Shown here one piece after another: positions 23,573 to 23,963 of a stretch of DNA of 64,000 bases. Below the pieces are notes generated by a model. That model saw nothing but the letters and a program-made list of their open reading frames with translations. It was not told the DNA's origin and made no database searches. The stretch is from Longimicrobiales bacterium. Lineage in GTDB: Bacteria; Gemmatimonadota; Gemmatimonadetes; Longimicrobiales; Gaopeijiaceae. The translations under genes and the position numbers were made by a program. The DNA is taken from contig OZ242008.1 in assembly GCA_965204735.1 (NCBI GenBank), positions 416,001 through 480,000 on the forward strand. The letters run 5' to 3'. Numbering within the stretch: position 1 is the first letter of the stretch; every line of letters starts with the position of its first letter.

Positions 23573-23963
23573 GCTCATCTTGGCGTCATCTTGGTGCCCC
23601 CCGACGCCATCTTGGCGCCCCCAGGGGGCACCATCTTAGTGCCCCCCCCCCCCCCCCCCCCCCCCCCCCCCCCCCCCGACGCCATCTTGGCGTCAACTTG
23701 ACGCCCCTGGGAGCGCCATCTTAGTGCCCTCAACGCCATCTTGGCGTGTTCCGCGACGCCGTCTTGGCGTCACTTGGCACCTGTTGACGCCATCCTGACG
23801 CCCCCGGGGCACCATCTTGGCGTCAATTCCCGCCATCTTGGCGTGTTCCGCGACGCCGTCTTGGCGTCATTGGCACCTCTTGACGCCATCTTGACGCCCC
23901 CGGGGCACCATCTTGGCGTCAATTCCCGCCACCGTGGCACCCTGACCAACATCATCCTGACGC
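23573..23963. repeat. Array of ~16 short palindromic units (core CGCCA-TCT-TGGCG) with a 96-97 bp higher-order duplication and a C36 run
   Basis: Core units at 23576, 23587, 23608, 23632, 23683, 23717, 23737, 23760, 23791, 23813, 23834, 23857, 23887, 23909, 23930, 23953. 23734-23830 repeats as 23831-23926. C run 23642-23677. Confidence 0.92.

Follow-up and report, generated by a model that had tools for sequence, protein, structure and literature searches.

Fusions of the Schlafen-HisKinase-HTH type make up 19% of prokaryotic Schlafens, whose catalytic motif is Ex4ExK, and the sections of that study available to us report phage protection only for DUF262 and Ig-like fusions, though the architectures selected there included HisKinase fusions (PMC13056530). 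The Fic enzymes CccR (PMC9755527) and SoFic (10.64898/2026.07.09.737422) carry C-terminal HTHs which, according to the available portions of both reports, bind their own locus specifically. PrrC, encoded in the EcoprrI type IC operon, is described in the accessible part of PMC3874165 as a latent tRNA nuclease that is held inactive by sequestration.

The locus compared with these systems here lies in a stretch of 64,000 nucleotides, the whole of which we refer to as the window. Its central gene shares with the "HisKinase-HTH" Schlafens, as presented in the available text of PMC13056530 (structure 3LMM, DIP2311), the Ex4ExK motif, HATPase_c_4, a C-terminal HTH and the defense-island setting; HATPase_c_4 presumably corresponds to the "HisKinase" of that text. 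The features of the locus are as follows.

20586..23564, minus strand: hsdR, type I restriction subunit (992 aa; Pfam; TIGR00348 above cut-off)
23571..23964, minus strand: hexamer ladder (the array) of G-R-Y-R-Y-Y hexamers with a ~10.75-bp period, mostly in pairs around AAGAT
23642..23677, plus strand: 36-C homopolymer within the array, length as assembled
23734..23938, no strand: higher-order duplication of 96/97 bp, 2.1 copies with 95% matches, recent
23952..25355, minus strand: Schlafen(AlbA_2)-HATPase_c_4-winged-helix gene (467 aa; Pfam PF04326, PF13749; model pLDDT 85.8)
23970..24149, minus strand: winged helix-turn-helix (helices 403-413, 420-426 and 433-445; wing 449-462)
24021-24059, minus strand: presumed recognition helix of the winged helix
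25293..25316, minus strand: codons of the Schlafen catalytic motif E14-x4-E19-x-K21, from sequence, with the motif as given in the available text of PMC13056530
25345..28030, minus strand: XRE-HsdM fused to one HsdS domain, in two frames in the assembly and continuous in the relative L019
27900..29606, minus strand: two SLOG (LD_cluster2) genes, head of the apparent operon

The Schlafen-HATPase-winged-helix gene thus sits between hsdM-S and hsdR. Its 467-aa product matches PF04326 with 65.9 bits against a cut-off of 25.3, the motif Ex4(E/D)xK is intact in it and was found in 46 of 46 alignable relatives, and we regard the protein as a predicted tRNA nuclease of a defense setting. A Foldseek search with its model returned 3LMM as the closest structure (E 7e-24) and, more weakly, human SLFN (E about 1e-4), and VIA-align matched the model of the winged helix to many winged-helix regulators (Z about 10-10.8), with no family standing out. 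PADLOC and NCBIfam assigned the 467-aa protein to no system or family, and only partial matches to pAgo fusions were obtained.

Several further observations concern the surroundings of the operon. An extra base near 27067 splits the XRE-HsdM-HsdS frame relative to L019; since contigs lacking this base are mixed, being a depth minority in runs X1 and X2 and the whole of X5, it may be real in the strain or an assembly error. TIR-like genes adjoin the SLOG genes in relatives (L019:3-647, L020:360-977 and L021:850-1467; ThsB-like by PADLOC for the first two, called by resemblance to L020 for the third), and none was seen at the corresponding places in the window. The window holds two copies of a 9-bp repeat (ATATAGCAA-like), at 11861-11889 and at 29712-29737; the latter copy, which precedes the SLOG-restriction operon by ~100 bp, is a possible regulator site. 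At 20234-20599, a 121-aa ORF with a HELLH metalloprotease-like motif, which we take to be YgjP-type, overlaps the hsdR stop.

The array occupies the full gap between the stop of the Schlafen gene and the GTG of hsdR, both on the minus strand. It begins in the stop codon of the Schlafen gene, its first hexamer falls within the last codons of that gene, and the hsdR GTG lies ~12 bp beyond the end of the last unit. A sequence-only reading of this DNA had listed 16 mini-palindromes with successive spacings of 11, 21, 24, 51, 34, 20, 23, 31, 22, 21, 23, 30, 22, 21 and 23 bp, and all 15 spacings proved exact on recomputation, 12 of the 16 centers being placed by a scan allowing at most 4 mismatches and 4 being set by eye. 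Each such mini-palindrome consists of two hexamers flanking AAGAT; on the minus strand the hexamers are mostly 11 bp apart, with joints that alternate between AAGAT and G/C linkers. The roughly helical phasing proposed in the same reading held up, in that the 29 strict near-palindromic hexamers showed a phase coherence (R) of 0.88 at 10.75 bp compared with 0.40 for random placement (p 0.001), and the higher-order duplication was recovered at the position given above.

Per 400 bp, the array contains 24 GRYRYC matches, the maximum of the genome (runner-up 15, mean 3.3). Scanning the 4.14-Mb genome with the 17-mer of the array revealed a single cluster, at this locus, and 10 scattered lone matches at up to 2 mismatches, so that the motif is not dispersed genome-wide and a REP-like repeat could be rejected. 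A CRISPR array was rejected as well, in agreement with the sequence-only reading, since the linkers of 3-7 bp recur and entire blocks are duplicated, leaving no unique spacers. Nor does an ORF bridge the Schlafen stop and hsdR, the frame that runs into the hsdR start being open for only 24-63 codons.

The 36-C run sits inside the 51-bp spacing of the array, and the corresponding joints in relatives hold 3-5 G. The window's genome (G000) contains 27 G/C homopolymers of at least 12 bases (12-36), several of them right after TTGAC-like hexamers or ahead of genes, which reflect either phase variation or a long-read artifact; similar runs were seen in four relatives. Run X1 may derive from the source sample; its contigs showed 0 differences from the window over 22800-23633 and 23902-24467. 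The ends of the array agree with these contigs; among the pieces listed none spans all of it, and the 36-C run lies between the matched parts. Since related arrays occupy the same place in three other genomes, the array as such did not arise by mis-assembly.

The loci in question, L019, L020 and L021 (97, 86 and 85% identical), carry the window's ladder at the corresponding place, in gaps of 200-224 bp versus 387 bp in the window. Matches to the strict 17-mer pattern were found in 6 of 151 family genomes, as clusters of 3-5 in G000, G440, G492 and G468, each placed at this locus by its coordinates, and as lone matches in two others. Plasmids yielded one relative (33%). Between the window and L020, 53-65% of silent sites differ, and the unit is retained with a similarity of 0.83 (background median 0.55, 95th percentile 0.73). 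All four loci bearing the window's unit also encode XRE-HsdM, which would be expected if the array were read by the HsdM XRE domain or by the restriction system as such. We nevertheless consider such a reader very improbable: across the family the arrays track the winged helix, and the HsdS of L020 is only 36% identical to that of the window and differs in layout, yet the array unit is identical in kind. A close XRE match was moreover present in just 3 of 33 array loci, all of the window's clade, a weak point given that most loci hold less than 1.5 kb upstream. A restriction target array was likewise rejected, the unit being unchanged between L020 and the window although HsdS differs.

In another genome, G489, hsdR is kept (94%) and the SLOG, hsdM-S and Schlafen genes are absent, with the junction lying within the array; the orphan hsdR (G489:C1:851003-854217; L268, L272) is preceded by about four units, and the junction letters recur in runs X3 and X5. 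The array might accordingly be a recombination or excision point of the defense cassette, but this was a single event, no recombinase was seen, and no matching repeat was identified at the other end, making it the least probable of the explanations discussed here.

Relatives were collected from 212 gathered loci, which gave 64 distinct genes scoring at least 30 bits against the winged-helix profile; a second search of family f3 added no further loci. A motif scan of these homologous loci, requiring at least 4 units that lie no more than 220 bp behind the HTH and are spaced by 9-12 or 19-23 bp, found such arrays in 34 of the 64, compared with 0/64 in the gene body, 1/33 at +600 bp and 4/64 with off-phase spacings. 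One of them, in L215, is coding low-complexity sequence and was later left out, leaving 33 arrays. With no period imposed, the units were spaced by 10 (103 cases), 11 (17), 9 (11) or 12 bp (9). Unit sequences differ widely between loci and the period stays at 10-11 bp, many relatives having perfect 10-bp tandems. The other 30 relatives have no 4-unit array, 14 of these carrying a 3-unit chain, yet the catalytic motif is kept in 20 of the 20 alignable ones; a long array is therefore not obligatory.

In relatives with other HTH types, arrays are found in frame and immediately before the HTH. In many of these the unit measures 11 bp and the frame in which it is read shifts, and the in-frame repeat is thus a DNA-level feature. 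At a lax threshold of three units, 41/44 and 24/25 pass in two of these types, as do 10/17 in a third, probably by chance. In-frame linker repeats with a CAAG core occur in L001, L003 and L007. The window's genome, which holds 18 HATPase_c_4 genes, has other arrays phased at 10-11 bp (G000:C1: 670413, 2637045, 2820227, 2895364, 3407093, 1233884 and 3182); a rough look at ORFs revealed no winged-helix gene adjacent to these orphan arrays. Those at 670413 and 2637045 are built from one unit, which is inverted between them, and the unit at 2820227 is that of the in-frame linker at 4110799.

The copy number of the array appears to vary through slippage and duplication, and the long ladder could be nothing but the by-product of this process, one or two functional or vestigial sites having been amplified without the ladder acquiring a function of its own. 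Gaps of 200 to 387 bp among the four close loci, recent block duplications, the perfect tandems, the relatives without a long array and the orphan arrays would all be explained in this way. What slippage accounts for poorly is that the 10-11-bp spacing is held across unrelated units, including degenerate ladders such as the window's, and that the unit is retained over near-saturated silent divergence. We thus regard a mere by-product as unlikely.

Of the 33 arrays, five are followed by hsdR (four of them the window's clade), 9 run into the end of a contig, 7 lie ahead of housekeeping or convergent genes, and behind 12 there was no Pfam hit. A delay of restriction, which the sequence-only reading had suggested, is therefore not supported as the general purpose of the array, which appears from its distribution to belong to the winged-helix gene rather than to hsdR. 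A related idea is that the winged helix, once on the array, acts mainly as a transcriptional roadblock, keeping expression of the following gene (hsdR in the window) low until methylation is in place. It is true that the array fills the entire gap to hsdR at four loci, that hsdR also lies behind the arrays of L053 and L054, and that hsdR is likely transcribed through the gap, since promoter and terminator consensus sequences were sought there and none was found. However, several arrays face convergent or housekeeping genes, and a repressor encoded on the hsdR transcript itself would presumably damp hsdR late and not early. A roadblock as the main role is therefore rather improbable, somewhat more so than a slippage by-product, and a local effect of this kind on hsdR is possible.

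The link between array and winged helix extends to the sequence of the unit. In a first Mantel test every protein region correlated with the unit, the Schlafen domain included (partial 0.21), which leaves plain linkage as an alternative. When the other HTH regions and the enzyme core were controlled for in a partial Mantel test of 28 loci, significance persisted for helix 2 and the first half of helix 3 (p 0.0035 each) and for the wing (p 0.025), and was lost for helix 1, the linker and the second half of helix 3. Within one 21-locus clade the values were p 0.011 for helix 3, 0.034 for helix 2 and 0.059 for the wing; in these tests six regions were compared with uncorrected p values, and the correlations are modest (0.16-0.21) and overstated by related loci. 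Two sister pairs on the core tree, L217/L232 and L058/L235, are unlike in both unit and helix, and the non-sisters L058 and L232 share both. Across 8 close pairs, a small post hoc sample picked by hand after the data had been seen, unit similarity fell with HTH pN (rho -0.84, p 0.009) and was unrelated to HTH pS (rho -0.01); L023/L024 was dropped because L024 has no scored array, and L019/L021 because it is not independent. Since unit similarity tracks amino-acid and not silent change in the HTH, the comparison argues for selection that matches the unit to the helix rather than for elapsed time. A per-column covariation scan of HTH against unit was too noisy to name specificity residues.

The sequence-only reading had also offered a hairpin ladder in the hsdR leader. 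The window's array does fold strongly as RNA (z -7.1), because its hexamers are palindromic, and compared with rough shuffles z was -2 or lower in 14 of the 33 arrays. A role of the repeats in the transcript, as hairpin ladder or repeat antitoxin, would be compatible with these values and with the fact that winged helices can bind RNA, SelB being among the fold matches of this one. The folding is not conserved, though: z was 0 or above in 12/33 arrays, five of them reaching only -1 to -3 kcal/mol. In addition, the unit of L219 is inverted relative to that of L231, two loci with 92% core identity and a near-identical helix, and the period is strictly helical. A CsrB-type sRNA (Rfam RF00018) was rejected, the weak matches of 19.2 and 14.1 bits being far under the cut-off of 71, and the Rfam scan of the array gave no match near cut-off. 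The shuffle-like folding of 12 arrays and the inverted unit favor reading of the array as double-stranded DNA, and we see little prospect for an RNA role.

Taken together, the position and period of the array, its family-wide link to the winged helix and the change of the unit with the amino acids of the HTH support binding by the adjacent protein. We put at roughly 0.6 the probability that the array is the cognate double-stranded DNA binding ladder of this winged helix, along which copies of the protein would be lined up. The operator-like array proposed by the sequence-only reading hence stands as regards phasing and, most likely, the adjacent winged helix, and is unlikely for the XRE domain of HsdM, though conceivable within the window's clade, in which the two genes occur together. 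As the C-terminal part of the Schlafen-HATPase protein, the winged helix would bind the ladder directly behind its own gene, setting several copies of the predicted tRNA nuclease on the same side of the double helix. Newly made protein might be captured in cis and stay parked until degradation or loss of the DNA, or competition for binding, releases it or switches it on. Capture in cis is suggested by the constant feature of the arrays, namely adjacency to the sequence encoding the HTH, the part translated last. Among possible purposes, parking of the latent nuclease seems the likeliest to us; to it and to cis capture, the more speculative part, we give about half the weight of binding itself. 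The observations would also be explained by a protein that becomes active upon assembling on the ladder, and damping of hsdR read-through at the window would be a local side effect.

We propose still more tentatively that in this widespread Schlafen tRNase family a private, fast co-evolving ladder could act as a DNA antitoxin, the nuclease being freed upon degradation of host DNA by a phage or loss of the element. If so, hundreds of natural pairs of HTH and 10-mer would make a recognition code readable. In practical terms, a cognate array behind such a gene, or in frame before its HTH, is a candidate control element that is easily lost when the reading frame alone is cloned. Arrays also break short-read assemblies, 9 of 33 ending at contig ends, and could account for the low-complexity linkers seen in many of these proteins, which would then be DNA sites and not protein features.

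Our literature search found no description of such arrays (subscription papers fell outside its scope, and some queries were narrow), and the available parts of PMC3874168 and PMC3710099 contain nothing on them. For the "HisKinase-HTH" Schlafens, the portions of PMC13056530 at hand do not mention a repeat array and show no activity for that architecture. Like the window's protein, CccR and SoFic combine a toxic enzyme with a terminal HTH, for which DNA binding at the own locus is reported there and predicted here; their sites, as far as the accessible texts describe them, are promoters (for CccR, one 10-bp inverted pair with a 26-bp spacer), whereas the window has a long phased ladder behind the gene. 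We count the precedent of CccR and SoFic, by analogy, as support for binding of the winged helix to its own locus. In the part of PMC3874165 available, PrrC resembles the present case in that a nuclease gene lies inside a type I operon, that of the window being ahead of hsdR, but PrrC is held by the restriction complex, and most array-bearing relatives do not precede hsdR. Upstream sites of the CccR/SoFic type were not found for the array family (cognate sites upstream of the genes ranked in the top tenth in 3/24 loci, mean rank 0.56), and the window has no array unit near the operon start. The fold of PrrC is presumably unrelated to that of the Schlafen protein. Phased repeats near 11 or 22 bp that are read by winged helices occur in plasmid iterons and Pho-box-type tandem sites; in contrast to these, the present locus has no replication initiator or response regulator, and the unit changes fast with the HTH. 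We conclude that the array is real and probably represents a new form of the operator-type arrays, one tied to Schlafen-winged-helix genes.
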